From contig JBKPAJ010000065.1 of the NCBI GenBank assembly GCA_046726375.1, positions 6,724 through 70,723 on the forward strand: a stretch of 64,000 bases of DNA, given 5' to 3'. How positions within the stretch are numbered: the stretch's first letter is position 1; every line of letters starts with the position of its first letter. The position numbers were made by a program, and so were the translations under genes. Source of the DNA: Acidobacteriota bacterium (GTDB lineage: Bacteria; Acidobacteriota; Vicinamibacteria; Vicinamibacterales; UBA2999). Below are positions 13,028 to 45,007 of the stretch, piece after piece. The notes beneath the pieces were generated by a model. The model saw only the letters and a program-made list of their open reading frames with translations, was not told the origin of the DNA and searched no databases.

Positions 13028-13138
13028 CTCGGAAAGTGGTCGGGGCGACTGGATTCGAACCAGCGACCCCCTGCGCCCAAGTGCCGCATCATGCGATTTC
13101 CCGAAACTCTCTGCAACAAGGCTCCTTCCAAGTCGTTG
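13028..13138 (-). repeat. tRNA-Pro-like 3' fragment repeat, copy 1 (no 5' half; not a functional tRNA)
   Basis: On the minus strand 13081->13037 reads CTTGGGC (U33, anticodon UGG, G37), GCAGG, GGGTC, GCTGG-TTCGAAT-CCAGT, CGCCCCG-A-CCA. C1:G72 is implied and A73 is present, as in bacterial tRNA-Pro. No matching acceptor 5' strand, D-arm or anticodon 5' stem lies upstream. About 90 percent identical by eye to 44896-45007 in inverted orientation. Confidence 0.65.
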
Positions 13139-14014
13139 GATCTGCATCAATTCGTGGCGATGGCTGCCGCCAAGGCAAACGACGCCGGGCCTGGAACCCC
13201 TGGGTGCCAACTGGGACCCCTGCGCGCCAAGCAGGCCACGGAGCCCACGAATCGTCCCGATGCTGAAGGACCACGCTTGGAAATTGATTCCGTTCGCCCT
13301 CAGTAACGCACACCGACACGCATCAACGCACTGTCCATCAACGACTTCCCGCAGCAACGATGTGCATCGGAGTGTCCCCGTAAATCACGGTGTTTGCCCC
13401 GGGGTTTAGGGGGTATCTGAACAGGTCTGACACAAGCCGGACGCCAACTTGTCGCGACGCACATCAACGAACAACGTGTAATAAGCGGTCCTAGCGCTTC
13501 GACGCGATGATTCGGACGAGGCCGGGAATCCTTCAGTTCGTACGCGCCCTGTTGGTGATGAATCAGGCCGTTGCGTGTACCGCCGGCAGTCGATACGACC
13601 GTCCAGGATCGGGCTCTCCGCACCATACAGCGGCAAGGTCAGGTTGAAGGCTCGCGAGTAGCAGGCGGTCCCGCGAAGCGAGATTCGCGCAGAGTTTCTG
13701 TCTCTTACTTTTTCTTGGAGAACAGAGTCGAACGGGGTGGCACTACTTTCCTTCGTGGGGAGGAAGGTTGTTGCAACAGGCCCTTCAGCGCGTCAAGAAG
13801 CATTTGCGTGGTCTCCGGCGGACCAAACCTTTCGTCCAGAAAATAGAAACGTGACCAGCGCGTATCCCTGTCGGTGAACTTCAAGTATTCGAACGGCGGA
13901 TCTGTATGGGTCGAGTCGGTCGCCTTGGTTCGGAAGCATCCATCATGGTGCTCGCATGAGACCGAATGAACTTCGAATGTCGCAGATGATTATCCAGCGC
14001 TACAACAAGCCGAG

Positions 14015-14319
14015 CACCGGATTCTGGTCAACGCGCTGACCCCCCGGATCGATCATCACCCAGGAACGGATCGACAAGATGAGCGATGGCACATTCGGCG
14101 AATCCGAGGTGCCGGAGGCCGCAGTCAAGACTCGGGAGAAGTTGCAGGCCGCAGTGAAGGGCGGCGCCTTCGCGCAGATGCTGACCACCATGATGCCGCT
14201 GGGCCGCCCCGGCTATCCCGACGAGATCGGCAAAGGCGGTGCTGTTCTTGGCATCCGACATGGCCAGCTACATCAGCGGCGCCAACCTGATCGTCGATGG
14301 CGCGCAGACCCTGCGGTAA
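14015..14319 (+). pseudogene. short-chain dehydrogenase/reductase C-terminal remnant with frameshifts
   Basis: RILVNALTP / GSIITQERIDKM...MPLGRPGYPDEIGK / AVLFLASDMASYISGANLIVDGAQTLR* is readable only across three frames. One break is at a C6 run near 14045. The N-terminal Rossmann part is missing. Confidence 0.6.
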
Positions 14320-14442
14320 CGAACGCCTCACGCGTCACTGCGATTTGTGATCGTCGGCGACCTTAGCAGCGCCGTCGAGACGCGAGGCGTCGGACCAGGT
14401 CAACGCGATCGTGCGGATGATTCAACGAGCTATGCTCGGGAC

Positions 14443-14883
14443 ATGACGATTCGACGGATGGACAACGTCGGCATTGTTGTCGACGACCTCGCCGCGGCTA
14501 TCGCGTTCTTTGTCGAACTTGGTCTCCACCTGGAGGGCGAGACGACAGTCGAGGGACCTTCGGTCGACCAAATGGTCGGGCTCGGCGACGTCCGAACGGA
14601 CATCGCAATGATGCGGACCCCGGACGGCCACGGCCGCGTTGAGCTGATGAAGTTCCAGAGGCCGACGGCGGTCAGCGCTGAACCGAAAAACGCACCGGCG
14701 AACACGCTCGGGATACGTCGCATTATGTTCGCCGTTGACGACATCGACGACGTCGTTGCCCGCCTGCAGAAGCATGGCGCCGAACTCGTTGGCGAGGTGG
14801 CGCAGTACGAGGACAAGTATCGGCTCTGCTACGTTCGGGGCCCTGAGGGCATCCTCGTCGCGCTGGCCGAGCAGGTCCGCTAG
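14443..14883 (+). CDS. VOC-family (glyoxalase/bleomycin-resistance/dioxygenase fold) protein
   Basis: MTIRRMDNVGIVVDDLAAAIAFFVELGL...GIRRIMFAVDDIDDVVARLQKHGAELVGE...GPEGILVALAEQ shows paired beta-alpha-beta-beta-beta VOC modules. Confidence 0.85.
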   Translation: MTIRRMDNVGIVVDDLAAAIAFFVELGLHLEGETTVEGPSVDQMVGLGDVRTDIAMMRTPDGHGRVELMKFQRPTAVSAEPKNAPANTLGIRRIMFAVDDIDDVVARLQKHGAELVGEVAQYEDKYRLCYVRGPEGILVALAEQVR

Positions 14884-15004
14884 CGGAGGTCCTCGAAGTG
14901 GAGTCCGCATTTGGCCCGATTGTGTCATTGGGCTATTGCACTCTCTCTCACGACATCCGCCTAGCGCCCGGTCTTGTGCTCGTAAGCGTCGCGTGTCCCA
15001 AGCC

Positions 15005-15200
15005 TTAAGCGAGAGCCGGCGCGCCACCACCAACGATTTGGACAAGCACGGCCGCAATTGAGGACAGAGGGAGCACGTAGTCCACGGCGCTCGTGTCGAT
15101 GGCTGCCTGCGGCATTCCGTGGTACTCGGCGGTCGCCTTATCTTGGGCGATGACGACCCCTCCCATCTTCGATATTTCAAGAACACCCGAGACGTGAGGC
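15005..15200 (-). pseudogene. CheB methylesterase C-terminal fragment
   Basis: GVLEISKMGGVVIAQDKATAEYHGMPQAAIDTSAVDYVLPLSSIAAVL matches only the extreme C-terminus of protein-glutamate methylesterases. The upstream catalytic and receiver parts are absent. Confidence 0.55.
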
Positions 15201-15255
15201 GCGAGCCACTGGAGAAGCGGCGACAGCTGCTCGAGAAGAGGGTTCTTCCGAAACT

Positions 15256-15311
15256 GCTCGGTATCTCGACTTGTTGAAACCGCAACGGAAGCGGTACGAA
15301 GTGTTCGACAC
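15256..15311 (+). repeat. 56-bp direct repeat, copy 1 (duplicated piece of integrase arm-domain coding sequence)
   Basis: GCTCGGTATCTCGACTTGTTGAAACCGCAACGGAAGCGGTACGAAGTGTTCGACAC is identical by eye to 15526-15581. It encodes ARYLDLLKPQRKRYEVFDT. Confidence 0.85.
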
Positions 15312-15504
15312 CGGAACCGGTCCGGTACTCGGCGTCGCTCGATGCGGATCTTCCCACTTTGATCCAATCAGTGAAGGTGCACGGGTTCGAAGGACTCGTC
15401 GCGAAACGTTGCGCGAGTCTCTATGAGCCAGGCCTTCGGTCAGGCGCGTGGATGAAGATGCGCGTGAACCGCGGCCAAAGAAACATCGGGAGGGTAGAAA
15501 AACC

Positions 15505-15705
15505 ATGGCGACTGTCACTCTGACCGCTCGGTATCTCGACTTGTTGAAACCGCAACGGAAGCGGTACGAAGTGTTCGACACGATCGTGCCAGGCTTCGCG
15601 ATCCGCGTGACGTCGGCGGGGCACAAGTCTTTCACGCAGTACTACCGCCATGGCCGACTACGGCGAGTCGGTTTGGGTCGCTATCCCGACGTGTTGTTGG
15701 GTCGT
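15505..15705 (+). mobile_element. truncated tyrosine-recombinase (P4-type integrase) N-terminal arm-binding domain remnant
   Basis: MATVTLTARYLDLLKPQRKRYEVFDTIVPGFAIRVTSAGHKSFTQYYRHGRLRRVGLGRYPDV is the DUF4102-type integrase arm domain. The catalytic domain is absent and the downstream reading frame is uninformative. It contains repeat copy 2 (15526-15581). Confidence 0.65.
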
Positions 15706-16097
15706 GCTTGGCTACAGCCAGTACAACTTCATCAACTCGCCCCAGGGTACCGCAGATTGTCGGAAAATTCCTCGCCGATTCGTTCACCAATCGCTGACCG
15801 GCGCAGCAGCAGCCTCGCAGAGGGCGCCGGATCGGACAAGAGCCGTCCAATGAGGAGCCGTTGCGCTACAGCCGGTCGATAATCGAGGCCGCGATACCCA
15901 AACGTTTTGATTCTGTTCTCGAACGACACTCGCCCTTGAACTAGCTTCACTAGTCTCGCCATTGTCGGCGTCGAACCGGAGCTCTTTCATGTTCGCGTGA
16001 CGCGAACCTTTCAGGGTGTCTACTCGCGGCCATGCCGAAAGTTGGCCGAAGCAACTGTAGCGCCTAGAGGCGAAGGAATAACCTAAGGTAGCAGCCA

Positions 16098-16124
16098 TGT
16101 CACATTCCGAAGGCCTATCCCGTC
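16098..16124 (+). promoter_or_regulatory. ECF41-type promoter, perfect TGTCACA-N16-CGTC
   Basis: TGTCACA at 16098-16104, a 16-nt spacer, CGTC at 16121-16124, 32 nt upstream of ATG 16157. The track ORF starting at 16097 begins inside this motif. Confidence 0.7.
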
Positions 16125-16156
16125 CCACCATTGGAGGACTAGAGGAACGAAAATCT

Positions 16157-16585
16157 ATGAAACGAACCTTCGCTCTTATTCTCGGCGCCCTGGCTGCAGC
16201 CGCCCTGTTGGGGGGGCTTGTGCATGCCGTGCTGGTGGCCGCGCACCTTTCCGAGCCAGCCGCCACCACGGTTTACGGCCTGACCCCCCGGCGACTCTGG
16301 GCCACCACGGTCGCTGTACTGGCGCTGGTCGGCGTGGTCATCGGTGGGCTGGCTCTGGCCCGCCCCGCCAGTCGTTTCGGCACCGCCTCTGGGGGACTTG
16401 GAGCCATCGTGGCCCTGGTGGCGGGGCTAATCGCCGCGGTCAATGGCGGGCTGGTTTTGGCTATCGCCAACGGTGGTCCCGGCACCGGCAACGGAGTAGT
16501 CGGCGGCGCCGGGGCGTTGGTGCTGGGGCTGATCGGCATGGCCCTCGGCGGGCTGGCTCTGGCCCGCTCCCACCGTACGGCCTGA
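16157..16585 (+). CDS. Gly/Ala-rich four-helix membrane protein co-transcribed with the ECF41 sigma
   Basis: MKRTFALILGALAAAALLGGL... contains four hydrophobic helices. An RBS-like GGAGGACTAGAGGAACG lies upstream, and the sigma gene follows 16 nt downstream. Confidence 0.65.
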   Translation: MKRTFALILGALAAAALLGGLVHAVLVAAHLSEPAATTVYGLTPRRLWATTVAVLALVGVVIGGLALARPASRFGTASGGLGAIVALVAGLIAAVNGGLVLAIANGGPGTGNGVVGGAGALVLGLIGMALGGLALARSHRTA

Positions 16586-16601
16586 CGGCGGTGCGCACGA
16601 C

Positions 16602-17555
16602 GTGAGTTCCGTGAACGCGATGTCGAATCCCGCCGCGAGCTTCGAGCCGTACCGCCGGCGCCTGCTCGGTCTCGCCTACCGCATGCTCGGGTCGATGGCC
16701 GACGCCGAGGACGCGGTGCAGGAGGCGTACTTGCGCTGGCATTCGGCCAACCGCGACAACGTGTCGAACCCGAGAGCGTTTCTCATGACCACGACGACGC
16801 GGATTTGTCTCGACATGCTGACCTCGGCGCGTGCCCGGCGCGAGGAGTACGTCGGCCCGTGGCTGCCGGAGCCGGTTGTTGACACCGAAGCGCTCGCGCC
16901 CGACAGCCGCACGGAGCTGGCCGAGGATCTCTCCATCGCGCTGCTCTTGGCGCTCGACCGGCTGTCGCCACTCGAGCGGGCGGCCTTCCTGCTGCACGAC
17001 GTGTTCGATTTCTCGTTCAACGAAGTGGCCACGGCACTGGAGCGGAGCGAGGCTGCATGCCGGCAGCTTGCCGCGCGCGCACGCGCAAACGTGCGCGCTG
17101 CGCGGCCACGCGGCGCGATCGCGCCGCCGGCGCGTTCGGGCCAGATCGATGCGAAACATGCGCAGCTCCTGTCTGCATTCGCGGCGGCAACCCAGTCGGG
17201 CGATCTGACTGCACTGACGCAGATGCTCGCGAGCGACGTGCGCGTGGTGACGGACGGCGGTGGCAAGGTGCGGGCGGCGCAGAACGTGATCGAGGGCGCC
17301 GATCGCGTGGCGCGGTTCCTGGTTGACGCCACACGCAAACGCCCAGGTGCCTGGTGGCGCGACGACTTCACGCTGCGCTTCGCGACCATCAACGGCCTGC
17401 CCGCTGTCATCGTGGACGGACCCGAAGGACCCGTGCAGACGGCGGCGTTCGAGATCGAGGGCGACGTGATACGAGCGCTGTACGTGGTGCGCAATCCGGA
17501 CAAGTTGCGGCATTTGGCGGCCGCATCGGCGCCGCACGAGAGCGGTCGCGGCTGA
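16602..17555 (+). CDS. ECF41-group sigma factor (SigJ-like) with fused SnoaL-like C-terminal domain
   Basis: Sigma regions 2 and 4 (DAEDAVQEAYLRWH, RICLDMLTSARARR, ERAAFLLHDVFDFSFNEVA) are followed by a C-terminal extension carrying the DGGGK (VTDGGGKV) and NPDKL (VRNPDKLRHL) signatures described for ECF41. An alternative start is ATG 16620. Confidence 0.9.
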   Translation: MSSVNAMSNPAASFEPYRRRLLGLAYRMLGSMADAEDAVQEAYLRWHSANRDNVSNPRAFLMTTTTRICLDMLTSARARREEYVGPWLPEPVVDTEALAPDSRTELAEDLSIALLLALDRLSPLERAAFLLHDVFDFSFNEVATALERSEAACRQLAARARANVRAARPRGAIAPPARSGQIDAKHAQLLSAFAAATQSGDLTALTQMLASDVRVVTDGGGKVRAAQNVIEGADRVARFLVDATRKRPGAWWRDDFTLRFATINGLPAVIVDGPEGPVQTAAFEIEGDVIRALYVVRNPDKLRHLAAASAPHESGRG

Positions 17556-17573
17556 ACAAGCGGCCGTCACAAC

Positions 17574-17909
17574 GTGGAGGAGCTCACGAGAATCGTGATC
17601 ATCGAGATGCGCACGTATCGAGCGAAGCAAGGCATGCGCGACGAATTTTTACGTATCTTTCGCTCGAAGATGGTTCCGCCTCACGTCGAGAGCGGGATGA
17701 AGATCCTAGGTCCATTCCTGTCGATTGACGATCCGGACACATTCTTCTTTATGCGCGGGTTTCCTGACCGGAGTTCGCACGAGCCGATGAAGGCAAGGTT
17801 CCACGACGGAGACCTGTGGACGAACGAGCTGAAGCACCTCTTGGTGCCAATGCTCGACAACTACGACGTCGTCGTCGTGGAAGACGCGGACGGCGTCATT
17901 CGCTGGTAG
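17574..17909 (+). CDS. NIPSNAP-family protein
   Basis: IIEMRTYRAKQGMRDEFLRIF...GPFLSIDDPDTFFFMRGFPD is the dimeric alpha-beta barrel NIPSNAP pattern. GTG start. Confidence 0.65.
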   Translation: MEELTRIVIIEMRTYRAKQGMRDEFLRIFRSKMVPPHVESGMKILGPFLSIDDPDTFFFMRGFPDRSSHEPMKARFHDGDLWTNELKHLLVPMLDNYDVVVVEDADGVIRW

Positions 17910-17937
17910 GACGTGTTGCGTGGAAGAGGAGGCTCAG

Positions 17938-18360
17938 ATGGCTCAGACAACCGAATCCGGAAGCGTAGAACGACACACGATCATCAAGAGCGTTCATGGC
18001 ATTCGCTATCAAGTAAAAGATGTCGCTCGCGCGGTCGCGTTCTATACGCAGCACCTCGGATTCACAGTGGAACACCAGCAACTCCCGGCATTTGCGAGCG
18101 TCTCGCTGGGCGACACGCGGATGCTGCTCAGCGGTCCCGGTGCATCAGGCTCGCGGCCGATGCCGAACGGTGAGCCGCAGGAGCCGGGCGGTTGGAATCG
18201 GGTCGTCTTGAAGGTCTCCGATCTACCAGGGCTCATCGGTGAATTCAAGAAGGCGGGACTACGGTTTCGCAACGAGGTAGAGACCGGGCCTGGTGGTCGA
18301 CAGGTCCAAATCGAGGATCCTGACGGGAATCCCATCGAGCTGTTCGAATCCGCTCGCTGA
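17938..18360 (+). CDS. VOC-family glyoxalase-like protein
   Basis: GGAAGAGGAGG lies before ATG 17938. IRYQVKDVARAVAFYTQHLGFTV...NRVVLKVSDLPGLIGEFKKAGLRFRNE...DPDGNPIELFE. Confidence 0.85.
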   Translation: MAQTTESGSVERHTIIKSVHGIRYQVKDVARAVAFYTQHLGFTVEHQQLPAFASVSLGDTRMLLSGPGASGSRPMPNGEPQEPGGWNRVVLKVSDLPGLIGEFKKAGLRFRNEVETGPGGRQVQIEDPDGNPIELFESAR

Positions 18361-18368
18361 CTCCCGTC

Positions 18369-19103
18369 TCACCGCGGTGACCAGTGCGGGCCGTCTGGGT
18401 ATGCAAGTTTCGCGTACCACCCACCGCGCCCCTGCGGTGTGAGATCGAGAAGATTGTAGACGGGGGTCAGCAGGTCGATTCCCCGCTCTTTGACATCTTC
18501 GGCCATCCAGGGGTGTGCGGAGTAAGAGTGACGGAGCGTGCCGTCGCGATCCCGGGTAAAGACCGAGATGGTCGAGTCCTGCCTGCCTTCGGCATCCTCG
18601 CTGCGAAGGTCATATTTGAACGTGCTGTTCCCGCAACTGAGCAGCCGAAGGTTGCGCCACCCTCGAGCGCGAGCGTGCTGGCGCAGGGCAGGCGGATCCG
18701 CGGCGGCGGCGATGGCGAAGTCGACGTTCTGGGCGAGATGATGACTGACGCCGTTGTAGGCGTCGATCCACATCGTGCACATCGGGCAGGGATTGGTCTC
18801 ACGCTTCCCGTACATCAAATGGTAGATGATCACTGACCGATCGGGCCCGCTGAACAGTTCGCTCAAGCGGACCGTCTGGATCGGGGTGTCCCCCGCATCG
18901 AGGTTCGACGGCCCTTCCTGAAACACATAGTCCTGGACGATCGCGCCCGCCGGAAGGCGACGGCGCATCGCAGCGACCCGTTCGCGCTGTCGCATCAACT
19001 CGATTTCCACCAGGCGGAGCTCTTCGCGTCGTGCGGCGTACTCGGCCGACTCGTTCGTCAGCCGGGTCAATTGCAGCGTACCGTTGATAGTCTCGATTGC
19101 CAT
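18369..19103 (-). CDS. DUF899-type thioredoxin-like domain protein
   Basis: The N-terminal coiled region (YAARREELRLVEIELMRQRERVAAMRRRLP), then CPMCTMWIDAYNG and LLSCGNSTFKYD, fit the DUF899 family layout. Confidence 0.8.
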   Translation of the reverse strand: MAIETINGTLQLTRLTNESAEYAARREELRLVEIELMRQRERVAAMRRRLPAGAIVQDYVFQEGPSNLDAGDTPIQTVRLSELFSGPDRSVIIYHLMYGKRETNPCPMCTMWIDAYNGVSHHLAQNVDFAIAAAADPPALRQHARARGWRNLRLLSCGNSTFKYDLRSEDAEGRQDSTISVFTRDRDGTLRHSYSAHPWMAEDVKERGIDLLTPVYNLLDLTPQGRGGWYAKLAYPDGPHWSPR

Positions 19104-19450
19104 AGGCCACTATGCGCCGCGACGATGGAGTCGTGTCAAGCTGTTCGATTGCGAGGCGTCAACGTTGTATGGTGATCTCAGATGCTTGAAGAACGGCTCC
19201 TTAGCATTGGTGTCGAGTGCTACGCCGGCCATCGTGGCGAGCAGACGCCACGCATACTGATCTTGGAGATCCGCGCATCGTCGTCGCGGAGGTGGTCGAC
19301 GCGTGGCTGGCGGCCGACTACCGGTACTTCAAATTGAAAGGTGCCGACGGCAATACGTACCTCGGCCGCCACGATGAGCGATCCAATATCTGGGAACTAA
19401 CGCCCTGGTCCATCCGCGTCGTTTTGCCCGATGCATTAGCGTGCAGACTG

Positions 19451-19867
19451 TCAGGACTGTTTTTCGGGCTCAGCCTGGTCCACGAAGCCTCCCTGCGGCG
19501 CCCTGTGAGGCAAAGACCAGCCGAAGTACACCTCGACATCGACGATGTGCTGGCCCCGAATGGTCAGAATCTCGGTGTTCCGAAATCGATGACCATTCGT
19601 ATTGCGTCCTTCATAAGTGACGAACACGCGATCGGCGTCGGTGACGAGATTGATGAAGTCGAACCTCTCGATGACCTTGCTGTTTGGCCAGCACCGCCGG
19701 AAATACGTGTCCCGGTCGAGGCGATTGTCGAGAGGGCTCGTGAAATGAAAATCGCTGGCAAGGAGAGCCTCGAGGGCCGCTCGGTCCTTGGTCACGTAAG
19801 CGTCGTAGGCGGCTCGCGCAATCTCCACGTTGCTGGTTGTCGCATTCGCGGCAGTCTGCGTGGTCAT
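19451..19867 (-). CDS. SnoaL-like/NTF2-fold protein
   Basis: GAAGGAGG lies before ATG 19867. NVEIARAAYDAYVTKDRAALEALLASDFHFTSPLD...VFVTYEGRNTNGHRFRNTEILTIRGQHIVDVEVYFG. Confidence 0.8.
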   Translation of the reverse strand: MTTQTAANATTSNVEIARAAYDAYVTKDRAALEALLASDFHFTSPLDNRLDRDTYFRRCWPNSKVIERFDFINLVTDADRVFVTYEGRNTNGHRFRNTEILTIRGQHIVDVEVYFGWSLPHRAPQGGFVDQAEPEKQS

Positions 19868-20153
19868 GTAATCCTCCTTCGAGTTATGAATTGGCCGTGT
19901 CAGAGGCGTAAGCCACAATTCGTTGGTGCGATGAGCTTGGCTTTCGGGTTAGCCCAGTTCCCTGTTGAGGAGATGCCAGATTCAAACCAACGCTTCGACG
20001 GCAGGCCTTATTGTTCGGCCAGCTTCCTTGAGGTTGTCGTCTCGCGGGAGTCGCATTGAACGCTCTTCTCTATATTCAACATTCAAGTCCATCGCTTTGA
20101 CCGCCGACGAACTCGACGTCACTGTCACGGCTGGCCGTCCAGTTGAATAGATA

Positions 20154-20663
20154 ATGAACACAATGCGAACTGAACGAGAAAGCACTGGCGACTCAGCGCT
20201 GAACCTCTGGCGTTTGTCGTTGATGTCGACTGCGATGACGATGACCGCCGCGGTCGCGCACGTGATGGAGTTGCCGGCCAAGATGCGCTACGAACGGTCG
20301 CTGTGATTCAGACTACCGCACGTTGTACCCGAACTTCGGGCAGGACTGCGGGACTGGCTGAAGTGGCGCCGGTGATCTCAACCCATCTGCTCGCGTGGCG
20401 GACGCGGCGTGAGCGACGCGAGGCGTTCCGATCGACCGCTGTCGCGGCCGTGTGCCTCGCGGCCGCGCACGCCATCTTCCGGGGGGCCGTGCAGCACAGT
20501 CAAAGTCGAGGTGATGCGATGGCCGCCTGATGCGATTCCGCACGATTGGGAGAACCGGCGCGACCGCTGGGAATATGGTCACGCGATCCGCGCCGGGCTC
20601 GTGACCGCCGCTCTCGGAGCATTGGTGACGTCAATGCCATCGCCCGTCAAATCAATCGGGTGA
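20154..20663 (+). pseudogene. DUF1772 (anthrone-oxygenase-like) membrane protein, multiple frameshifts
   Basis: The family-like sequence is split over frames: ...AAVAHVMELPAKMRYERSL* / DYRTLYPNFG / RTAGLAEVAPVISTHLLAWRTRRER...AAHAIF / VEVMRWPPDAIPHDWENRRDRWEYGHAIRAGLVTAALGAL. Confidence 0.55.
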
Positions 20664-21062
20664 GCAGATTGTCCGACCAGAATGGATCGTCCCGTATCCC
20701 GTACCACGCGTCCGCGCGACACCTCTGGCTATGACGCTCATCGATACACTCCGACTGAAGGAGAACGAGGAGGTGTGTAGAACTCGCAAGTAACTATGTT
20801 CTGGTGATTTTCCGCCCTTCAGCAGTTAGGTGTCCAAGATTTGCATACACTCGCCGGAACTACCGCGGCGAGTGCCGGAGGCCCACCTCCATGCGGTGAT
20901 GAGGTGGGTCGACCCCTCAACGGCTCCGCCGCCTACGACGCGCTGAGGAACGCCCGGGCGCTGCGCTGGCCCGCCGCACGATGCCTCGGCGGCCAATTCG
21001 CCCAATGCGTTCGACGCGGAGACCGCGGCGTTCGCCTGATCGAGCACAAGGAGCACACGAAC

Positions 21063-21539
21063 ATGCAGCCAAAGAACACGATCTGCCTCTGGTTCGACAA
21101 GGACGCGCAGGAGGCGGCGCGCTTCTACGCCGCCACCTTTCCGGATAGTCAAGTGACCGCTGTTCACGAGGCGCCTGGTGACTACCCGGGCGGTAAGGAG
21201 GGCGATGTACTGACGGTGGAGTTCACTGTTCTGGGCATTCCCTGTCTCGGTCTCAACGGCGGCCCGGAGTTCAGGCACAGCGAGGCCTTTTCCTTCCAGA
21301 TCGCGACGGACAATCAGGAAGAGACGGACCGCTACTGGAACGCGATCGTCGGCAATGGCGGCAAGGAAAGCCAGTGCGGTTGGTGCAAGGACCGCTGGGG
21401 CCTCTCCTGGCAGATCACCCCGCGCGCGCTCACCGAGGCGCTTGCGGCTGGTGGCGGTGAGGCAAAGCGTGCCTTCGAGGCGATGATGCCGATGAAGAAG
21501 ATCGACATTGCCACCATCGAGGCAGCGCGGCGGGGCTGA
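21063..21539 (+). CDS. PhnB-like VOC-superfamily protein (3-demethylubiquinone-9 3-methyltransferase-domain type)
   Basis: MQPKNTICLWFDKDAQEAARFYAATFPDS...VEFTVLGIPCLGLNGGPEFRHSEAFSFQI...ETDRYWNAI...CGWCKDRWGLSWQITP. Confidence 0.85.
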   Translation: MQPKNTICLWFDKDAQEAARFYAATFPDSQVTAVHEAPGDYPGGKEGDVLTVEFTVLGIPCLGLNGGPEFRHSEAFSFQIATDNQEETDRYWNAIVGNGGKESQCGWCKDRWGLSWQITPRALTEALAAGGGEAKRAFEAMMPMKKIDIATIEAARRG

Positions 21540-22873: not shown

Positions 22874-23116
22874 ATGAAAGTCAGTGTCGCCGAAGCGAAG
22901 AATACGCTTCCTAAGCTGATTAAGGCCGTCGAAGACGGCCAGTCCGTAACGATCTACCGCCACGGAACGCCGGTGGTGGACATCGTCCGGACTACGAAGG
23001 CCGATCCAAAGAAGCCGAAGTTCGGGACATTGAAAGGAAAGGTGACCGCTCTCGACCCCGACTGGTGGAAGCCGATGACGGACGATGAGGTCGAAGCCCT
23101 CCTCGATGGCCGTTAA
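22874..23116 (+). CDS. type II antitoxin, Phd/YefM family
   Basis: MKVSVAEAKNTLPKLIKAVEDGQSVTIYRHGTPVVDIV is the Phd/YefM N-terminal fold. It is 80 aa and lies 3 nt upstream of the PIN gene. Confidence 0.85.
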   Translation: MKVSVAEAKNTLPKLIKAVEDGQSVTIYRHGTPVVDIVRTTKADPKKPKFGTLKGKVTALDPDWWKPMTDDEVEALLDGR

Positions 23117-23119
23117 CGC

Positions 23120-23500
23120 ATGCGGCTCATTCTCGACACGGTCACCTTTATCTGGGCGATCAGCACTCCGGAGCGCCTGTCCCGTGCCGCGATGTCCGCT
23201 GTGCGAAAAGCGACTGCGATGCGCGAAATCAGCGTCGTTTCCCTGACCGAGATTGCCGTTAAACAGACCAGAGGGAGGCTGACGTTGAGCAAGGCGGACG
23301 CGATCGCAGGCGTCGCTGATCTGCGATTGCGGGTCTTGCCGTACGGGACGGAGCATGCTTTCCGCCTCTTCGATCTGCCCACACATCATGCCGATCCTTT
23401 CGACCGTCAAATCATCGCCCAGGCCCTCGTGGAAAAGATTCCGGTCGTCACGCCTGACGAATCCTTCAAGCTTTACGAGGGCCTGAAGGTCATATGGTGA
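23120..23500 (+). CDS. vapC: type II toxin, PIN-domain ribonuclease (VapC)
   Basis: MRLILDTVTFIW...SLTEIAVK...HHADPFDRQIIAQALVEKIPVVTPD carries the conserved acidic PIN residues (D6, E, D, D). Confidence 0.85.
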   Translation: MRLILDTVTFIWAISTPERLSRAAMSAVRKATAMREISVVSLTEIAVKQTRGRLTLSKADAIAGVADLRLRVLPYGTEHAFRLFDLPTHHADPFDRQIIAQALVEKIPVVTPDESFKLYEGLKVIW

Positions 23501-26412: not shown

Positions 26413-26450
26413 ACGGAGACATAGATGCTTGCCAACAACAAGGAGTGCGT

Positions 26451-27270: not shown

Positions 27271-27449
27271 GGGGTTTAAATGCGAATTTGAATCTTGCGA
27301 ATGCGGTGGAGCTGGGCACACGGAACCCAATCGCCAGCCGTTGTCACCAGAAAACACCCTGTGCGCGAACAACTGGTTGGTGCGTCAGCAGTGCGAAACC
27401 TATCCGTCGTAGCTGCCCGAGCTCAGTTCTTTTTCCCAGCTGCTTTCAG

Positions 27450-27519
27450 GGCAAGGTGAGGGCGGCGCAGAACGTGATCGACGGCGCCGATCGCGTGGCG
27501 CGGTTCCTGGTTGACGCCA
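27450..27519 (+). repeat. 70-bp fragment copy of the ECF41 sigma gene C-terminal region
   Basis: Matches 17262-17331 with 2 mismatches by eye. It encodes KVRAAQNVIDGADRVARFLVDA and has no surrounding sigma ORF. Confidence 0.85.
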
Positions 27520-27642
27520 GGCATTGGGGCGCTCGCGGGCGGGCCACGGGTGCCAATAGCGCCGGGCAGGGACTCCTCGCAAGCAGTCCGTCCGCACCGA
27601 GCCGCGACCGCACCCTTTGATCGAGCCCTTCAAGGACCCTGA

Positions 27643-33584: not shown

Positions 33585-34789
33585 GAGATCACCTCGCGTC
33601 GCAACGTGGCGGCGATCGGGAGTGCGGACACGATGCGCATCGGATACGCCGCTGCCGCGATTGATGCGCCGGCGAGCAGCGCGATGTAGAGCACGAGGGC
33701 GCGCGGCTCGAAGACAAAGAAGTGGAGGTCGGCAGGAATGCCGGGCAACGTGCGCAGGATCGCGTCCAGCCACATCGACAGCGCCAAACCGAGCGGCAGC
33801 GCGAGCATCCCTCCAATGCCGACGAGCATCATCGATTCCCACAGGACGCCAGCGGTCACGCGCGCCCGCGACAAACCGACAGCGCGCAACGCCGCAATCT
33901 CCGCCAGGCGCTGGTTCACCGACACGGTGAGGAGCACCGCGATCAGGAGAAAGCCGAAGAACAGCGTCACCGTCCCGAGCACCGTAGACATCTGGCGGAA
34001 GTACGAGAACTCGACGCGGCTGGATCGCTCGACGAGCTCCTCGTTGGTGACGACGCGGAGCTCGGGGTGGGCGGCGCGGATCGCGGCCGCCGCGCCGAGC
34101 GAGCCAACCTGGGGCGTCGATCGCACCAGGAGCATTTCGGACCGGTCGTGCTCGTCGTCTGCGCACAGCAGATTGGCATCGGCGAGCGTGCCCGCGACCG
34201 TGGAGGCCGTCACCGCATCAAAGGGAAAATGCGCGATGCCAGCGACCGTGAACCGTACGGCCGGGAGCGCACCGGACTCGTCGCCGCAGCGGCCACGCAA
34301 CGAGAGAGTGGAACCGACGACAAGACCAAGGCGAGCAGCGAGTTGCCGGTTCACGACCACGACAGAGGTCGAGCTCGTCGTGTGCGGCAGGTCCTGTCCC
34401 TCGATCATCGTCCACATCGATCGCACGCCCCGGTCCGCGCCGATGAAGTCAACCACAGGACCGGTGGACTCGCCGTCCGACACGACTTCCGCATCGCGCA
34501 CGCGCAGTTGAAGAACGGTCTCGACGCCCGGAAGCCCGCTCAACTCAGTGGCCAGGGCGGTGGCGCCGGTGAGTCGCGGTCCGGTCATCGGTGGCGCGTC
34601 GGACGCGAGCACGCGGATGTCGAAACCTGAGCGCTCGAGCAAGTCGGCAAACGACAACACCAGGCCGCGCGAGAGCAGGAGCATGTCGAAGAGCAACGCG
34701 CCGACAGCCGCGACGCCGCACACACCCAGCACCGAGCGTGCCGGCTGGCGCACCAGGCTCAACCACGCAAATCGAAAGGCGCGAAGCAC
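33581..34789 (-). CDS. FtsX-family ABC transporter permease
   Basis: The GTG start shares one base with the upstream TAG. TM1 (SVLGVCGVAAVGALLFDMLLL), a periplasmic domain of about 230 aa, then three C-terminal TM helices of the FtsX domain (NQRLAEIAALRAVGLSRARV...). Confidence 0.8.
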   Translation of the reverse strand: MLRAFRFAWLSLVRQPARSVLGVCGVAAVGALLFDMLLLSRGLVLSFADLLERSGFDIRVLASDAPPMTGPRLTGATALATELSGLPGVETVLQLRVRDAEVVSDGESTGPVVDFIGADRGVRSMWTMIEGQDLPHTTSSTSVVVVNRQLAARLGLVVGSTLSLRGRCGDESGALPAVRFTVAGIAHFPFDAVTASTVAGTLADANLLCADDEHDRSEMLLVRSTPQVGSLGAAAAIRAAHPELRVVTNEELVERSSRVEFSYFRQMSTVLGTVTLFFGFLLIAVLLTVSVNQRLAEIAALRAVGLSRARVTAGVLWESMMLVGIGGMLALPLGLALSMWLDAILRTLPGIPADLHFFVFEPRALVLYIALLAGASIAAAAYPMRIVSALPIAATLRREVIS

Positions 34790-35649
34790 TATCGGCCGAC
34801 CAGCGTCAGAAGATGCCGGCGAAGAAGCGTCCACGAGGCGACGACGCTGGCGGCGATGCCGAGCGGCACAGCGATGGCCATCGACTGCCACATCACCGTT
34901 GAGGTGATCCTGATAAAGATCAGCGTCGTGTCGTAGCGCCACTGAAAAAAACGATTGAATAGCCCCTGCATGGCAAGCGCGAAGAGGATGCCCGCAGCGG
35001 CTCCGACCGTCGCGATCAGTGCGCCTTCGGCGAGAACCTGCATCAGGATGCGACGCCGCGTGAATCCGATCAGCCGCAGCGTCCCCACCGTGCCGCGACG
35101 CTCATCGACCACCATCACCATCAGCGCCAACAGAAACACCGCGCTGCCGACGACCGTGACGATCGCGATCGCGAGATGGAATCGCTCGATAACGAGGAAC
35201 GTGGTCGTGCGATCGTTAGCTGCATCGGTCCGTCGCGCCGTAACGGTGGGCAGCCGAGCTGTGACGTCACGCACGAAGGCGTTGGCGTTTGCGGGATCGT
35301 CGAGGGCGATGTTGATGGATGTGATGGACTCGGCGGCCGCTGGATCTGAGGGATCGGCGGTCAGCGTCAACATGTCGGGCAGATGCAGGCGTACTTCGAG
35401 GCGGCGTTGAGCAAAGCGCATCGGATCTGGCGTTGGCTCGTAGATCCCAGCAATCCGAAATTGTCGCGCGTTCACTCCCGATGCATCATTCGACAGACGC
35501 ACCGTGTCGCCGACGCCGAGGCGGCGGCTTTCGGCGAGTTGTCGGGAGATCAGGATAGAGGTTGCGTCCGGCGGTAGCGATTGTGTCGAAGTCGTGAGGG
35601 TGGCAATGAGCGCGATGAGAAGGAAGAGCCGGGCAGAGGGCCGGGGCAT
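34789..35649 (-). CDS. FtsX-family ABC transporter permease (short periplasmic domain)
   Basis: The N-terminal anchor ARLFLLIALIATLTT, a periplasmic segment, then the FtsX block ERRGTVGTLRLIGFTRRRILMQVLAEGALIATVGAAAGILFA. Confidence 0.8.
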   Translation of the reverse strand: MPRPSARLFLLIALIATLTTSTQSLPPDATSILISRQLAESRRLGVGDTVRLSNDASGVNARQFRIAGIYEPTPDPMRFAQRRLEVRLHLPDMLTLTADPSDPAAAESITSINIALDDPANANAFVRDVTARLPTVTARRTDAANDRTTTFLVIERFHLAIAIVTVVGSAVFLLALMVMVVDERRGTVGTLRLIGFTRRRILMQVLAEGALIATVGAAAGILFALAMQGLFNRFFQWRYDTTLIFIRITSTVMWQSMAIAVPLGIAASVVASWTLLRRHLLTLVGR

Positions 35650-36085: not shown

Positions 36086-37726
36086 TTAGGGCGACAACAG
36101 GGCGATCACCGCGCGCGCCGCGTCGGTCAGCGCCTGCCCTTGAATCGCGGTCAGACGCCGGGAATGAACCAACGCGTTCACTTCATTGATGAACGCGGAG
36201 AGCTGGTTTTCGGCCAGTGCCCTCTTGTCCGCTTCGAGCGCGGCGCGCGCGGCGTTAAGCTTCGCGACCAGCGACGAGGCGGACCCGGTGTGCAGCGCGC
36301 CTGACACGGACAACCCATTCACATCCTCAATGAGTACATCGAGGAGTGCCAGCGGGTCGGCTGGGACTGTTTCGGCGCTGTAGCGGGCGATGCCAAAATC
36401 GGCGTCCGTCTCGGGCGGCCCGCCCGCCTGACCGACGGCGATGAGACGGCCGTCCGGCTGCACCGCCACCCCATGGGCCCGATCGACGCTGCCGCCGGCC
36501 GCAAAATCGGTCCTGATAATTCCGCCAATGCCGAAGGTCGGATCACGCGTGCCATCCATCGATCGCTGGAGCAGGAAGTCTTCGTCGAGGTTGGTTGGAT
36601 CCAATGGATCGTGCCGGGTGGACCCGATGACCAGGAACGCGCCATCGGGCACGATCACGATCTTTGTGATCGTCTGATACGGGAGGACTGACAGAGGAGC
36701 GACTACGACGCCACCGGAGCCGAATTCAGGATCCGGTGTGCCGTCCGGGTTGAACCGCGCCACCACGCGCTGAGAGAGTGACCCAGTGGCGGCGGCGCCG
36801 GCGAGAATGTCTCCGTCGGGCTGGAGTGCAACCGCGTTGGCCTCGCTGCTGTCGCCGAGCGGCACCGTAGCGATCCCGTCCGTGCCGAACGACGTGTCGA
36901 GCGTACCATCGGCATTCACGCGAGCCACCATGAAGACGCTGATCGGGATGAACGGGTTGAGAGGGTCAACCCTCTGGGCGCCCGCAAGGATGATCTTGCC
37001 GTCCGGCTGCAGCGTGGCATCGCTGACCCGCCACGTTCTCAGAGGCCAGTGGAACGTACCGTCGGTGCTGCCATCCGGGTTGAACCTCGCGATCCAGACT
37101 TGACTGAGACAGGGGAACCTGCAGCCGATGTAAATCGGCTGAACCATTCCAATCAGTAGCACCTTTCCGTCCCCTGAAGGAGCACACGCGACAGCGACAC
37201 GGGAACGGAGTTCGACGGGATGAACACCGTGCCACCAGTACCGAACGCCTGGTCGAGCATGCCATCCGCCGAAAGCCGCGCGCCCGTAATGTGCCGCAGC
37301 GCGGGAAAGAAGGACGTCGTCACCACGCCGCCGACAATGATTTTGCCGTCCGGCTGAATGACAACATCGCGGGCACCGTCGCTCGGTTTCAATGCCTGGA
37401 AGGCTGGGTCCAAACAACAGCGTCTTCCCTGCGCTGCCGAACATAGGATCGAGCAACCCCGTGGATGTCAAACGAATGACCGCGAAAGGCCCCTTGCTTT
37501 CGCCGGCAATGACAATGCGCCCATCGTCCTGGACGGCCACGGCGTAGGCGACGTCTCTGGTCGGCAGCGTTTCGGTGGACGCGAGATCGACGGTGACTTT
37601 GCCGGCCGCCCCAAATGTCGGATCGAGACCGGCATTGATGGTGTCGGCCTGGATCGCCGCCGCCGTCAGCAGCGCGGTCGCCAGACTCACAAGACGCAGC
37701 AGCCGGTGCGAGAGTGCGGGTCGCAT
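36086..37726 (-). CDS. secreted delta-60-repeat beta-propeller protein with C-terminal helical domain; internal compensated frameshift suspected
   Basis: Signal peptide LRLVSLATALLTAAAIQA. Repeated units such as ARFNPDGSTDGTF, VNADGTLDTSFGTDG and RFNPDGTPDPEFGSGG. Between about 37190 and 37425 the repeat pattern (LDPAFQ...VVIQPDGKIIVGG...LSADGMLDQAFGTGG) is found in another frame (track ORF 37153-37413). Confidence 0.65.
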   Translation of the reverse strand: MRPALSHRLLRLVSLATALLTAAAIQADTINAGLDPTFGAAGKVTVDLASTETLPTRDVAYAVAVQDDGRIVIAGESKGPFAVIRLTSTGLLDPMFGSAGKTLLFGPSLPGIETERRCPRCCHSAGRQNHCRRRGDDVLLSRAAAHYGRAAFGGWHARPGVRYWWHGVHPVELRSRVAVACAPSGDGKVLLIGMVQPIYIGCRFPCLSQVWIARFNPDGSTDGTFHWPLRTWRVSDATLQPDGKIILAGAQRVDPLNPFIPISVFMVARVNADGTLDTSFGTDGIATVPLGDSSEANAVALQPDGDILAGAAATGSLSQRVVARFNPDGTPDPEFGSGGVVVAPLSVLPYQTITKIVIVPDGAFLVIGSTRHDPLDPTNLDEDFLLQRSMDGTRDPTFGIGGIIRTDFAAGGSVDRAHGVAVQPDGRLIAVGQAGGPPETDADFGIARYSAETVPADPLALLDVLIEDVNGLSVSGALHTGSASSLVAKLNAARAALEADKRALAENQLSAFINEVNALVHSRRLTAIQGQALTDAARAVIALLSP

Positions 37727-37781: not shown

Positions 37782-38107
37782 GCTAGCATGTCGATGGCGC
37801 GCTGGCGGCGTCAATGAGCGGTTGCGCGTGCGCCGACGTCAGGCGACGCGAGCGCACCAGGGCGTTCACTTCATTGACGAACGCCGACAGCTTCTTCACG
37901 GCCGGACCGTGCTTGTCCGCTTCCACCTGGCGGGCGTGCCGCCTCAAGCTTCGCGACCAGCGACCAGGCGGAGCCGGCGTGCAGCGCCCCCGACGCGGAC
38001 AACGTGTTCACATCGCGGATCAGCACGTCGATGGCCGCCAGAGATGCATCAGGGAAGGCCGACAAGCGGTGCGACCACCCAAGCCGCGCTGCGCCTGTCT
38101 GCGTCAC
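37782..38107 (-). pseudogene. orphan diverged copy of the C-terminal helical domain of the neighbouring delta-60 protein, one frameshift
   Basis: AAIDVLIRDVNTLSASGALHAGSAWSLVAKLEAAR / HARQVEADKHGPAVKKLSAFVNEVNALVRSRRLT parallels LLDVLIEDVNGLSVSGALHTGSASSLVAKLNAARAALEADKRALAENQLSAFINEVNALVHSRRLT (36100-36380). The propeller part is absent. Confidence 0.6.
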
Positions 38108-38225
38108 GCTGGAGGTCAGAACGATGAGCTAGCGAGTACGAGTGGAACCCTGGGGTTCGTCTGACACCATTCGGCGCCTGCGCGCCAGAACATTTGCGCA
38201 ATCAATAGCTAGCGAGTATCGAGGC

Positions 38226-38301
38226 GCACAGAGTTGCAGAACATCGGAGAAAGGTGCACTTGGGCGCAGGGGGTCGCTGGTTCGAATCTCTGCGCGACTC
38301 C
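38226..38301 (+). repeat. tRNA-Pro-like 3' fragment repeat, copy 2 (chimeric; diverges after the T-loop)
   Basis: 38255-38287 (GCACTTGGGCGCAGGGGGTCGCTGGTTCGAATC) is identical to copy 1 from the anticodon loop to the T-loop. It then continues CTCTGCGCGACTCCA, a different acceptor-like end that no longer pairs with the T-stem. Confidence 0.55.
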
Positions 38302-38364
38302 AATTCGCTAAGATATCCTCGCCCGTGATGCTCACGGCTTCGCTGTTGCCCCCGACTTGCCAGA

Positions 38365-43140: not shown

Positions 43141-43149
43141 GAAGATCTT

Positions 43150-43812
43150 TCAGGTTGTTTTCGTCATCCACAGCTCGCAGCCGATGCCGTTGACCGCGAT
43201 GTCGCCACGGCCGAACCGACTGCGTTTGGCCATCTCGGCAAGTTGTTCGTGCGTGTACGCGAGCTTCAGCAGCATGAACCGGAACGTCCACCGCGTCAGA
43301 TGCTCGTTCAATCGAGACAGGTGCATGTTGCGCACCTCCGCATCGATCTCCTCGGGTGTGGCGTTCTTCCTCAAGTCGAAGATGGACGCTTGCCCTCCCG
43401 GTCTCAGGACGCGGTGCATTTCGTTAATCGCGCCCAGCGGATCGGTGAAGTTCTTGAACGCCGCCACGCAGACCGCATAATCGAACCACGCGTCTGCGAA
43501 CGGCAGGTGTGCAGCATCTCCGTGCCGCACGTCGACGGATACACCCGCACGGATGGCGTTTTCCTGGGCGATGCGTACGAATGACTTGCTGATGTCCAGC
43601 GTGGTGACCGAATACCCACGCTTGGCGAGCTCGATGGCAAGGTAGCCGGGTCCGGGTGCGACCTCGAGCACGCGTGCGCCCGATGACAATCGTCGCGCCA
43701 CGAGCGTGGCCGTGTCCTCGAAGCGCCTTCGTTCCCGACCAGTGTTGCGCGTGTACCACGTCGCAATGACACCCTCCATCGGCAGCCCTTTGTAGGCCTT
43801 TGCCGTCTTCAC
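43150..43812 (-). CDS. class I SAM-dependent methyltransferase
   Basis: GAGGAGG lies 5 nt before GTG 43812, which I prefer to the TTG at 43836. Motif I VLEVAPGPGYLAIELA, then VLRPGGQASIFD. Confidence 0.85.
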   Translation of the reverse strand: MKTAKAYKGLPMEGVIATWYTRNTGRERRRFEDTATLVARRLSSGARVLEVAPGPGYLAIELAKRGYSVTTLDISKSFVRIAQENAIRAGVSVDVRHGDAAHLPFADAWFDYAVCVAAFKNFTDPLGAINEMHRVLRPGGQASIFDLRKNATPEEIDAEVRNMHLSRLNEHLTRWTFRFMLLKLAYTHEQLAEMAKRSRFGRGDIAVNGIGCELWMTKTT

Positions 43813-43830
43813 ACGGACCTCCTCTTGTAT

Positions 43831-43862
43831 TAACAATGGTCGCTAATTAGCTAACATTGTTA
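43831..43862. promoter_or_regulatory. 32-bp nested palindrome, probable TetR operator in the divergent promoter region
   Basis: TAACAATG gtc GCTAATTAGC taa CATTGTTA lies between the methyltransferase start (43812) and the TetR start (43908). Confidence 0.55.
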
Positions 43863-43907
43863 GCTTACGGCCAACGGCGTTGTCATGTCAACCGCGAGGT
43901 TGCTACG

Positions 43908-44678
43908 ATGGATCCGACTCAATCGATGACTCTCGTTCCCCTTCGCAAGACGGAGCGCCGGCGCAAGCGCCGGCCCCTCGATCAGGCTCAGGTCGTTCGC
44001 GCGGCGCTTGGGCTGCTTGACGAGGTCGGACTCGACGACCTGACCATGCGCCGGTTGGCCGAGCATCTGGGCGTTAAGGCCGCGTCCCTGTACCGACACG
44101 TCCACAACAAGAGCGAACTGCTCGCGCTGCTCGGCGACGAAATCAGCGGCGAGATTCCGGTAGCGCGCGCGTCCGGCAGTTGGCAGGCACAGTTGAAGGA
44201 GATGGCGTGGAACGTACGGCGAGGCCTGCTTGCGCATCGCGACGCCGCGCGGGTCCTGGCGAATTCACCACCAGTCGGACCCCGGCGGCTGAAGCACATC
44301 GAGGCCGTGCTACGGATTCTGCGTACGGCAGGTCTCGCCGATCGGGATGCGGCGCGCGCGGCATATCACCTGAACAACTTCGTGACGGAGTTCGCGGCGG
44401 ACGAGGCCAGATTTGCGGCCTACGCCTCGGCGCCCGGGTTCAGCCGCCGCAAGCTTCTCGTCGACGCGCGCAAACACTTCGCGTCGCTATCGAAGGACGA
44501 GTACCCGACGATTGTGGCGCTCGCCGATCACCTCACGGAAGATGCGCAGGACGAGCTCTTTCAATTCGGCGTAGACATGTGCCTGCGTGGGATCCAGGCG
44601 CTTTCCGCGCACGACCTCCAGGCAAGGAGTGGTCGTGGGTCGTCCGCACGCACGGCCGCCGACACCCAACGTCGGTAA
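43908..44678 (+). CDS. TetR/AcrR-family transcriptional regulator (TetR_C-type ligand domain)
   Basis: VVRAALGLLDEVGLDDLTMRRLAEHLGVKAASLYRHVHNKSELL is the TetR HTH. Confidence 0.9.
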   Translation: MDPTQSMTLVPLRKTERRRKRRPLDQAQVVRAALGLLDEVGLDDLTMRRLAEHLGVKAASLYRHVHNKSELLALLGDEISGEIPVARASGSWQAQLKEMAWNVRRGLLAHRDAARVLANSPPVGPRRLKHIEAVLRILRTAGLADRDAARAAYHLNNFVTEFAADEARFAAYASAPGFSRRKLLVDARKHFASLSKDEYPTIVALADHLTEDAQDELFQFGVDMCLRGIQALSAHDLQARSGRGSSARTAADTQRR

Positions 44679-44895
44679 CGGTTGAGCCGGAGTCCTGGAG
44701 TGGGACTGCGAACACTGATGCGCCGGTGATCGGGATCCGCAGCGTCGCGATACGACTCCTACTCCGTCCAAAGGAATCGACTACCGCGGCGGCGGGACGC
44801 CTGCCTGGCGCGGGCGCCCCCGAGTGGCACCTCGGGTTCCGCGGCCCGATGTCACGTCATTTGCTGCACGCCGGTGCGCCGAACCGGCACGAGGT

Positions 44896-45007
44896 CAACG
44901 ACTTGGCAGGAGTCAGCATTGCAGAGAGTTGTGGGAAATCGCATAATGCGCCACTTGGGCGCAGCGGGTCGCTGGTTCGAATCCAGTCGCCCCGACCACT
45001 TTCCGAG
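44896..45007 (+). repeat. tRNA-Pro-like 3' fragment repeat, copy 3 (no 5' half)
   Basis: 44954-44998 reads CTTGGGC GCAGC GGGTC GCTGG-TTCGAAT-CCAGT CGCCCCG A CCA. The upstream 58 nt and the downstream CTTTCCGAG are also shared with copy 1 (inverted). About 100 of 112 positions are identical by eye. Confidence 0.65.

Follow-up and report, generated by a model that had tools for sequence, protein, structure and literature searches.

Facing tRNA-Pro fragments in an Acidobacteriota contig as probable remnants of stacked, integrase-less genomic islands

Heterobivalent attachment sites (attP), for which lambda and P4 provide the paradigm, combine core sites with arm-type sites on the P and P' arms. 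Fragments of the 3' part of tRNA genes (tDNA), attP sites centred on the anticodon and tandem arrays are catalogued features of genomic islands; in the Islander collection, 3760 of 3919 islands had a 3' fragment and 2083 had an anticodon-centred attP (PMC4383910). Accretion and decay of elements into att-flanked units, called cis-mobilizable elements (CIMEs), have also been described (PMC5704250). In our study, we examined 64,000 nucleotides (nt) from an Acidobacteriota bacterium (Vicinamibacterales, UBA2999; assembly GCA_046726375.1, contig JBKPAJ010000065.1, positions 6,724 to 70,723), a stretch referred to here as the window, in which two 3' fragments of a tRNA-Pro gene face each other across about 32 kb. 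Our findings suggested, with a probability of roughly 0.85, that these fragments are fossil att junctions of islands stacked at tRNA-Pro, that the integrases were lost, and that an inversion spanning some 6.3 kb flipped one fragment, copy 1. Features of this kind are well known, and the islands of this type mapped so far in Acidobacteriota are few.

The preliminary description of this DNA, made by reading the sequence, had reported two facing copies of about 112 nt at about 90% identity, and our alignments agreed with it. Copies 1 and 3 were 90.2% identical over 112 nt by BLAST, and a repeat finder run on the 64-kb window returned their inverted arms (13028-13116 and 44919-45007) as 89 nt at 94% identity. 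The longest exact run common to both was 42 nt. A 32-nt probe covering the T-arm and the acceptor-strand core matched the window twice, at copies 1 and 3, with 0 matches expected in shuffled sequence. To this pair we added a third, decayed copy on the plus strand, copy 2 (38226-38303; repeat-finder match 38226-38288), whose core is exact over 30 nt (38259-38288) up to the T-loop and then decays. By the repeat finder, copies 2 and 3 are direct and copy 1 is inverted relative to both. An open reading frame (ORF) that crosses copy 1 (13010-13357, minus) had no family match in Pfam and was treated as spurious.

The tRNA part of the copies is the last 45 nt of the Acidobacteriota tRNA-Pro(UGG); it begins at C32, in the anticodon loop CUUGGGC, and ends with CCA. 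Copy 1 matched the parent at 45 of 45 positions and copy 3 at 44 of 45, the single mismatch falling in the anticodon stem strand. The sharing of 9 nt past CCA, also reported earlier, was borne out, as the trailer CTTTCCGAG follows CCA in both copies; the form CTTT[T/C]CGAG is likewise found 3' of many intact tRNA-Pro genes elsewhere. The view of the copies as non-functional 3' fragments was upheld within the window, where ARAGORN called neither copy, nor any other sequence, an intact tRNA, a BLAST search with the parent tRNA returned no 5' half, and Rfam gave no match at gathering thresholds. At 42893, 13 nt agreed with the tRNA 5' half, which on inspection we attributed to chance.

A scan for the parent tRNA with the 45-nt tRNA part, using one genome per species, gave at least 118 loci and 121 listed matches; comparison loci in other genomes and metagenome contigs are denoted below by L-numbers. 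Among the matches listed, 91 of 121 were intact genes reading CGGGGCGTAGCGCAGCCTGGTAGCGCACCTGC|CTTGGGCGCAGGGGGTCGCTGGTTCGAATCCAGTCGCCCCGACCA, and most record titles were Acidobacteriota, largely Vicinamibacterales. About 30 of the listed matches were fragments, all of which started at the bar, that is, at the first base of the anticodon loop. Nine viral contigs held the last 38 nt of the block, which served as the search pattern, with no callable tRNA-Pro at that position.

Judged by sequence comparison, the homology upstream of the tRNA part is the P arm of an attP family linked to a P4-type tyrosine integrase. The proximal arm of copy 1 is ca. 65% identical to the integrase-adjacent arms of L111 and L042, in which ca. 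190 nt separate a fragment with the aligned upstream arm from the start of an integrase gene that is transcribed divergently. The integrases of these two loci are complete, with Arm-DNA-bind_3, Phage_int_M and Phage_integrase domains, and a full P4-type integrase stands beside attP in L111, L042 and L144, whereas the window keeps the N-terminal domain only. The longer of two integrase stubs in the window was 66-74% identical at the amino acid level to residues 1-70 of the L042 integrase and residues 23-104 of that of L111 (tblastn), and both stubs are directed away from copy 1, an orientation shared with the full integrases of L111 and L042. Part of the integrase N-terminus is duplicated, as marked by a direct repeat of 59 nt (15253-15311 and 15523-15581, 98% identity). 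A C-terminal fragment of a CheB methylesterase gene (15005-15367, minus) overlaps this repeat in what is a patch of pseudogene debris.

No integrase gene was present in the window apart from these two N-terminal stubs; Pfam scans of the called genes and tblastn found no catalytic domain anywhere in it. Pfam scans of called genes across the window also returned no transposase, recombinase, phage or conjugation gene, and PHROGs scans of ten mostly unassigned ORFs added no mobility gene.

Identity between copies 1 and 3 was graded, at 98% in the core, 81% over the 58 nt of the proximal arm and ca. 60% farther out to about -180, where homology trails off weakly (z of about 4). Because the arms differ to this extent while the core does not, the copies indicated two related elements rather than a recent duplicate. 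The homology upstream of the tRNA part had been attributed earlier to two related elements or to one duplicated junction, and it was the former that the arms favoured. The distal block of the copy 1 arm (13262-13435) shared 78% identity over 175 nt with the corresponding position of the metagenome contigs L169 and L176, and the exact proximal P arm was found in 0 contigs of the metagenome scan. The proximal arm also contains a small palindrome, CGCAT-N-ATGCG (13095-13110 and 44925-44940), 10-25 nt from the core, which may be a protein-binding site. At the equivalent position, L111 and L042 carry another palindrome (ACGCGT).

Pairs of short direct repeats lie directly outside both facing copies. 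The GGTCAC pair next to copy 1 recurred at +15/+26 after the intact tRNA-Pro in L034 and L099 and after the fragment in L058, and the GGGGTAAC pair beyond it recurred at +14/+25 after the tRNA-Pro cores of L031 and L035 and at +138/+149 in L047. Apart from these two and the GGGGTTCC pair next to copy 3, the window holds no further pairs of this kind. Across the comparison loci, 8-mer pairs phased at 11 nt occurred only at about -150 to -126 upstream of cores or at +10 to +27 after CCA. For example, GGGGTGAC occupies the P arm beside the integrases of L111 and L042 and also the P' position after the intact tRNA of L064. Similarly, the P arms of L056 and L150 carry GGGGTTCC, as does the P' position in 54 metagenome contigs (ca. 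24 with an intact tRNA-Pro, ca. 28 with a fragment), and L044 is one small island with GGATCACA sites in both arms. The variants GGGGTGAC, GGGGTAAC, GGGGTTCC, GGTCACAT and GGATCACA have one core in common. The type B P' arm, as found next to copy 3, was detected in 0 contigs of the viral-contig scan. Such a layout is what one would expect if a heterobivalent integrase used the 8-mers as its arm-type sites. On this reading, a pair 3' of an intact tRNA would mark the gene as occupied, and a fragment lying between an arm and a pair would be a junction of stacked elements. The interval 44894-45031, which spans P arm, core and P' arm, was 80-85% identical as one unit to at least ten metagenome contigs. 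The outer flanks of copies 1 and 3 are probably element DNA rather than host DNA, given the repeats with which they open.

The trailer and the GGGGTAAC pair are separated by 124 nt more in the window and in L047 than in L031, and these extra nt include the GGTCAC pair and a weak tRNA-like remnant, core 0. The block with core 0 is kept in L047, at 80% identity over 229 nt, and the extra 124 nt look like the last trace of another element. At copy 2, the 'type C' downstream flank was 82% identical to L056, L036 and L050. The features discussed so far, together with those bearing on the inversion described below, are collected in Table 1.

Table 1. Att-related features of the 64-kb window, with positions counted from its first letter.
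Feature	Position	Strand	Description
Proposed inverted segment	12854-19155		Ca. 6.3 kb; holds copy 1, core 0 and the integrase stubs
GGGGTAAC-N3-GGGGTAAC pair	12882-12900	minus	Putative P' arm of a third element type; ca. 120 nt beyond the GGTCAC pair
Core 0	12901-12958	minus	Possible strongly decayed tRNA-Pro core; directly 5' of the GGGGTAAC pair, the expected place of a core
GGTCAC-N5-GGTCAC pair	13005-13021	minus	Putative 'type A' P' arm stub; directly 3' of copy 1
Copy 1	13028-13138	minus	Trailer 13028-13036 (CTTTCCGAG); 45-nt tRNA-Pro(UGG) 3' core 13037-13081; proximal P arm 13082-13138
Extended and distal P arm of copy 1	13139-13435	minus	8-mers GGGGTTCC (13193-13200) and GGGGTCCC (13213-13220); distal block 13262-13435
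Second, shorter integrase N-terminal stub	15253-15360	plus	Ca. 51-59% identical to the L111 and L042 proteins; repeat finder, tblastn
Integrase N-terminal stub	15505-15708	plus	Arm-DNA-bind_3 domain only (Pfam); tblastn
Copy 2	38100-38303	plus	Diverged P arm; GGGGTTC site ca. 38152-38158; core 38259-38288 exact; decayed 3' part; 'type C' downstream flank
Copy 3	44896-45007	plus	Proximal P arm 44896-44953; core 44954-44998 (44/45); trailer 44999-45007
GGGGTTCC-N3-GGGGTTCC pair	45013-45031	plus	Putative 'type B' P' arm; directly 3' of copy 3
Possible fourth remnant	53086-53123	plus	Resembles the distal P arm of copy 1 (84% identity over 38 nt, repeat finder)

The facing orientation of the copies means that an inversion was needed, as had been proposed earlier; the proposal that the scars themselves were its breakpoints was not sustained, with the best ends falling at ca. 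12.85 and ca. 19.15 kb. In all comparisons from 19156 rightwards, it was the plus strand of the window that corresponded to the sense strand of the tRNA at the other locus; at the integrase stub and in the distal arm of copy 1, it was the minus strand. The switch in orientation therefore falls within 15.7-19.16 kb. In L031, a block 82% identical (over 240 nt) to window 19156-19395 begins ca. 55 nt beyond the GGGGTAAC pair, and the homology of the window to both L031 and L047 ends at 12854-12855. Flipping the segment between these points restored the order of L031, with an alignment score of 530 compared with 215 for the present order, and placed all att remnants in direct orientation. In at least nine other loci, the orientation of cargo homologues relative to tRNA-Pro agreed with this inversion, and in six multi-copy loci elsewhere the copies were all direct. 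We infer that a single inversion of ca. 6.3 kb is the simplest history, with about an even chance that the ends given are the exact ones. The small conserved block at 19156-19400 (...DYRYFKLKGADGNTYLGRHDERSNIWEL...) appears frameshifted in the window; in L031, where the block is intact, it lies ahead of a gene for a Y-family polymerase (IMS).

A separately deposited assembly, GCA_046729875.1, covers both regions. Its contig JBKPHN010000203.1 spans window 8367-21415 at 99.95% identity and its contig JBKPHN010000321.1 spans window 28366-52144 at 99.8%, so that both junctions are crossed with both flanks and in the same arrangement, making misassembly unlikely. The look for isomers across both junctions that had been recommended thus returned, at the level of assemblies, one isomer from two assemblies. 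With that single isomer, and with no recombinase in the window, there was no indication of a site-specific invertible segment. Further homologous inversion of the enclosed 32 kb, as suggested earlier, is possible in principle because 42 nt are exactly shared. Two contigs of the second assembly end and overlap at ca. 21284-21415, for which a repeat, a coverage drop or a variant could be responsible, and this assembly carries 182 extra nt at window 48162-48164, being otherwise 99.8-100% identical.

Stacks of similar make-up occur at other loci. In L144, L150 and L180, the order is integrase, core, GGGGTAAC pair, toxin-antitoxin pair, 544-amino-acid protein, 950-amino-acid protein, arm, second core, GGGGTTCC pair and ParE/RHH pair, and the middle unit of these arrays has no integrase. 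The protein of ca. 950 amino acids in L144 (6775-9627) has a TOTE-type archaeo-eukaryotic primase (AEP) domain, a ResIII/DEAD helicase and a DUF559 nuclease. It recurs by tRNA-Pro att sites of other soil contigs (L143, L144, L150, L180, L164), often with toxin-antitoxin pairs, and is absent from the window; the 950-amino-acid ORFs at equivalent positions in L111 and L089 were matched by length and position only. The second core of L144 (10122-10166), L150 and L180 has a T stem changed on both strands (GCCGG...CCGGC versus GCTGG...CCAGT), a sequence difference suggesting that this core arrived with the element as a copy made in another host lineage.

The unit of 6.7 kb that runs from copy 2 to copy 3 in the window (38.3-44.9 kb) contains only PALP, CMD, methyltransferase and TetR genes and no integrase; with two direct att sites and no recombination or transfer genes, it has the form of a CIME. 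The cargo left in the window comprises extracytoplasmic function (ECF) sigma factors, glyoxalases, a Phd/PIN toxin-antitoxin pair and ATP-binding cassette (ABC) transporters, and parts of it are associated with tRNA-Pro elsewhere. The PhdYeFM antitoxin and PIN toxin (22874-23500) are 94% and 86% identical at the amino acid level to the pair of L164, which lies 5.8 kb downstream of an occupied tRNA-Pro, and a pair within the same range of identity (86-94%) follows an occupied tRNA-Pro in L156. A BNR gene at 21.8-22.8 kb matched L061, and 53.7-57.5 kb matched DNA downstream of tRNA-Pro cores in L166, L159, L019, L037 and L014. A tblastx comparison of the flanks of 19 att loci with the window gave no synteny beyond att-proximal blocks, the plasmid collection yielded only short ABC-transporter matches, and exact-protein look-ups with four guessed gene starts returned no match. 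On the sequence features described, copies 1, 2 and 3 would be internal junctions of a decayed, tandemly accreted array rather than the two ends of one 32-kb element. The idea that the pair brackets one unit of 32 kb was abandoned, as the interior holds another att remnant, at 38.2 kb, and changes its orientation to the left of it.

An alternative is that copies 1 and 3 are plain attR scars of two related islands bordering host DNA, brought face to face by an inversion between the scars or islands, as the preliminary description had it. Scars of this kind would have the P arm on their inner side, where it lies in both copies and where the integrase stubs lie at copy 1, and the trailer common to both would also be in keeping with them. 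However, both outer flanks open with arm-type pairs that are also seen in integrase-adjacent P arms and after occupied tRNA-Pro, in different taxa; copy 3 matches other contigs as a single P-core-P' unit, the cargo to its right is island cargo elsewhere, and the orientation switch maps away from the scars. The copies were rightly read as scars of site-specific elements, and it is the simple attR next to host DNA that we now regard as improbable.

The remaining explanations appear far less probable still. Repeats can cause misjoins, and the source is probably a metagenome-assembled genome, so a chimeric join at the repeat could have created the inverted arrangement; the second assembly, however, shows both junctions and breaks at ca. 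21.3-21.4 kb, away from the repeats and the proposed breakpoints, and we would be surprised if an artefact were responsible. An inverted pair at ca. 90% identity around a block of accessory genes is also what terminal inverted repeats of a 32-kb transposon-like element would look like. Such an element is hardly credible here, as the scans for transposases and recombinases described above were empty, the outer flanks differ (TTCATAGG versus AGTTCGGG) and show no target-site duplication, a direct third copy lies inside, the copies of the multi-copy loci are all direct, and the unit has the anatomy of an attP next to integrases in other genomes. The intact T arm, acceptor 3' strand and CCA, together with the 58 nt kept upstream in both copies, could point to a structured RNA, either tRNA-like or derived from a tRNA, that has its own function. 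Against this, ARAGORN and Rfam were negative, the 5' half is missing from the window, the mismatch in copy 3 falls in the anticodon stem strand, folding energies were no better than those of shuffled sequences (z of -0.9 to -1.2), the predicted folds differ between the copies, and the upstream conservation aligns with DNA arms beside integrase genes; we give this explanation next to no weight.

Several observations weigh against our interpretation of the locus as a decayed stack with one inverted segment. The exact junction of the inversion comes from one relative, L031, and the proposed breakpoints have only an 8-nt inverted match in common, which is at chance level. Homologues of a flanking gene (DUF899), found on long contigs at 86-87% identity, have unrelated neighbours and provide no synteny signal on the inversion. 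The parent gene of the array was not seen in the window, the source genome was not among the loci listed by the scan, and the arm-type role of the 8-mers is drawn from their position and recurrence. Core 0 is a weak candidate, since 8 of 1000 shuffles and 37 of 3196 window segments aligned with a score at least as high, and the site at 53 kb is also weak, with no recognizable core at 53086-53123.

From these findings, we infer the following order of events for the stack. P4-type heterobivalent tyrosine integrases would recombine the attP of an element, which reproduces the 3'-terminal 45 nt of the tRNA and the 9-nt trailer, with the tRNA-Pro(UGG) gene. Recombination at the anticodon loop would rebuild the tRNA and displace its original 3' part to the distal end of the element. 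Repeated integration at one tRNA gene could then produce a tandem stack in which each internal junction consists of a P arm, a core and the P' arm of the next element. The elements would subsequently have decayed until the integrase remained only as two N-terminal stubs and the cargo was left, and the segment with copy 1 would later have inverted, causing copy 1 to face the other way. The att scars are expected to be inactive today; activity is not expected unless an integrase from elsewhere in the genome or RecA on the 42-nt repeat acts on them.

If the window is such a stack, at least 45 kb of it would be a decayed island array rather than core genome, which is of value for annotation. It would also explain tRNA-like fragments that tRNA finders may miscall, and facing att scars need not delimit one element. 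The comparisons with other loci show the tRNA-Pro(UGG) gene to be a busy integration site in soil Acidobacteriota, with modular P and P' arms, and this could be of modest use when islands, with the defence and toxin-antitoxin genes that they carry, are mapped in metagenome-assembled genomes. A broader possibility, which we put forward tentatively and consider rather doubtful, is that the P4-type integrases of soil Acidobacteriota form a radiation that shares one tRNA-Pro(UGG) core and uses different arm-site 'dialects' (the five 8-mer variants named above), with integrase-less units moved in trans by a matching helper, and that the window is a decayed, partly inverted stack of such units, in which the inverted 42-nt cores could still allow rare flipping of the 32 kb. 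By this arrangement, many small islands could stack at one gene without cross-excision, and the stacked islands would carry defence, toxin-antitoxin and regulator genes, often without an integrase.

Other observations concern the remaining genes of the window. Four ECF sigma-factor paralogues are present (16602-17555, 23856-24965, 55370-56248 and 56856-57734), two of which are fused to SnoaL-like domains. A further ECF fragment lies at 27249-27620, and 70 nt within it (27450-27519) are 97% identical to 17262-17331, a sequence match that suggests a recent partial duplication or a pseudogene fragment. A short-chain dehydrogenase/reductase (SDR) gene (26445-27270) is seemingly split by a frameshift, and the MacB/FtsX permease genes (33581-35649) overlap oddly. 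The DUF5122/FIMAH gene (36086-37726) is one ORF in the window and two genes in GCA_046729875.1. Tandem repeats of 375-378 nt (63-79% identity) occur at 60289-61432, inside a DUF11-domain gene.

Compared with described systems, the locus resembles tDNA islands of the Islander type in its 3' fragment starting at the anticodon loop, its identity past CCA, its integrase family and its tandem arrangement (PMC4383910). It differs from them in that the window holds no intact tDNA or integrase, one fragment is reversed, so that the Islander filters would reject it, and the junctions lie between elements rather than at borders of island and host. The unit between copies 2 and 3 and the unit between the first and second cores of L144, both without an integrase, are like the CIMEs known from streptococci, where they are related to ICESt1 and to integrative and mobilizable elements (IMEs) (PMC5704250). 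Unlike the streptococcal CIMEs, the units of the window belong to Acidobacteriota, have tRNA-Pro as their target, show no conjugation or mobilization genes and stand in an array that is partly inverted. The direct 8-mers, phased at 11 nt and present in both arms, parallel the heterobivalent attP of lambda and P4, as does an integrase whose arm-binding domain is N-terminal. The sites described here differ in that the arm sites are putative, being read from sequence, and that several 8-mer variants have a single core sequence in common.

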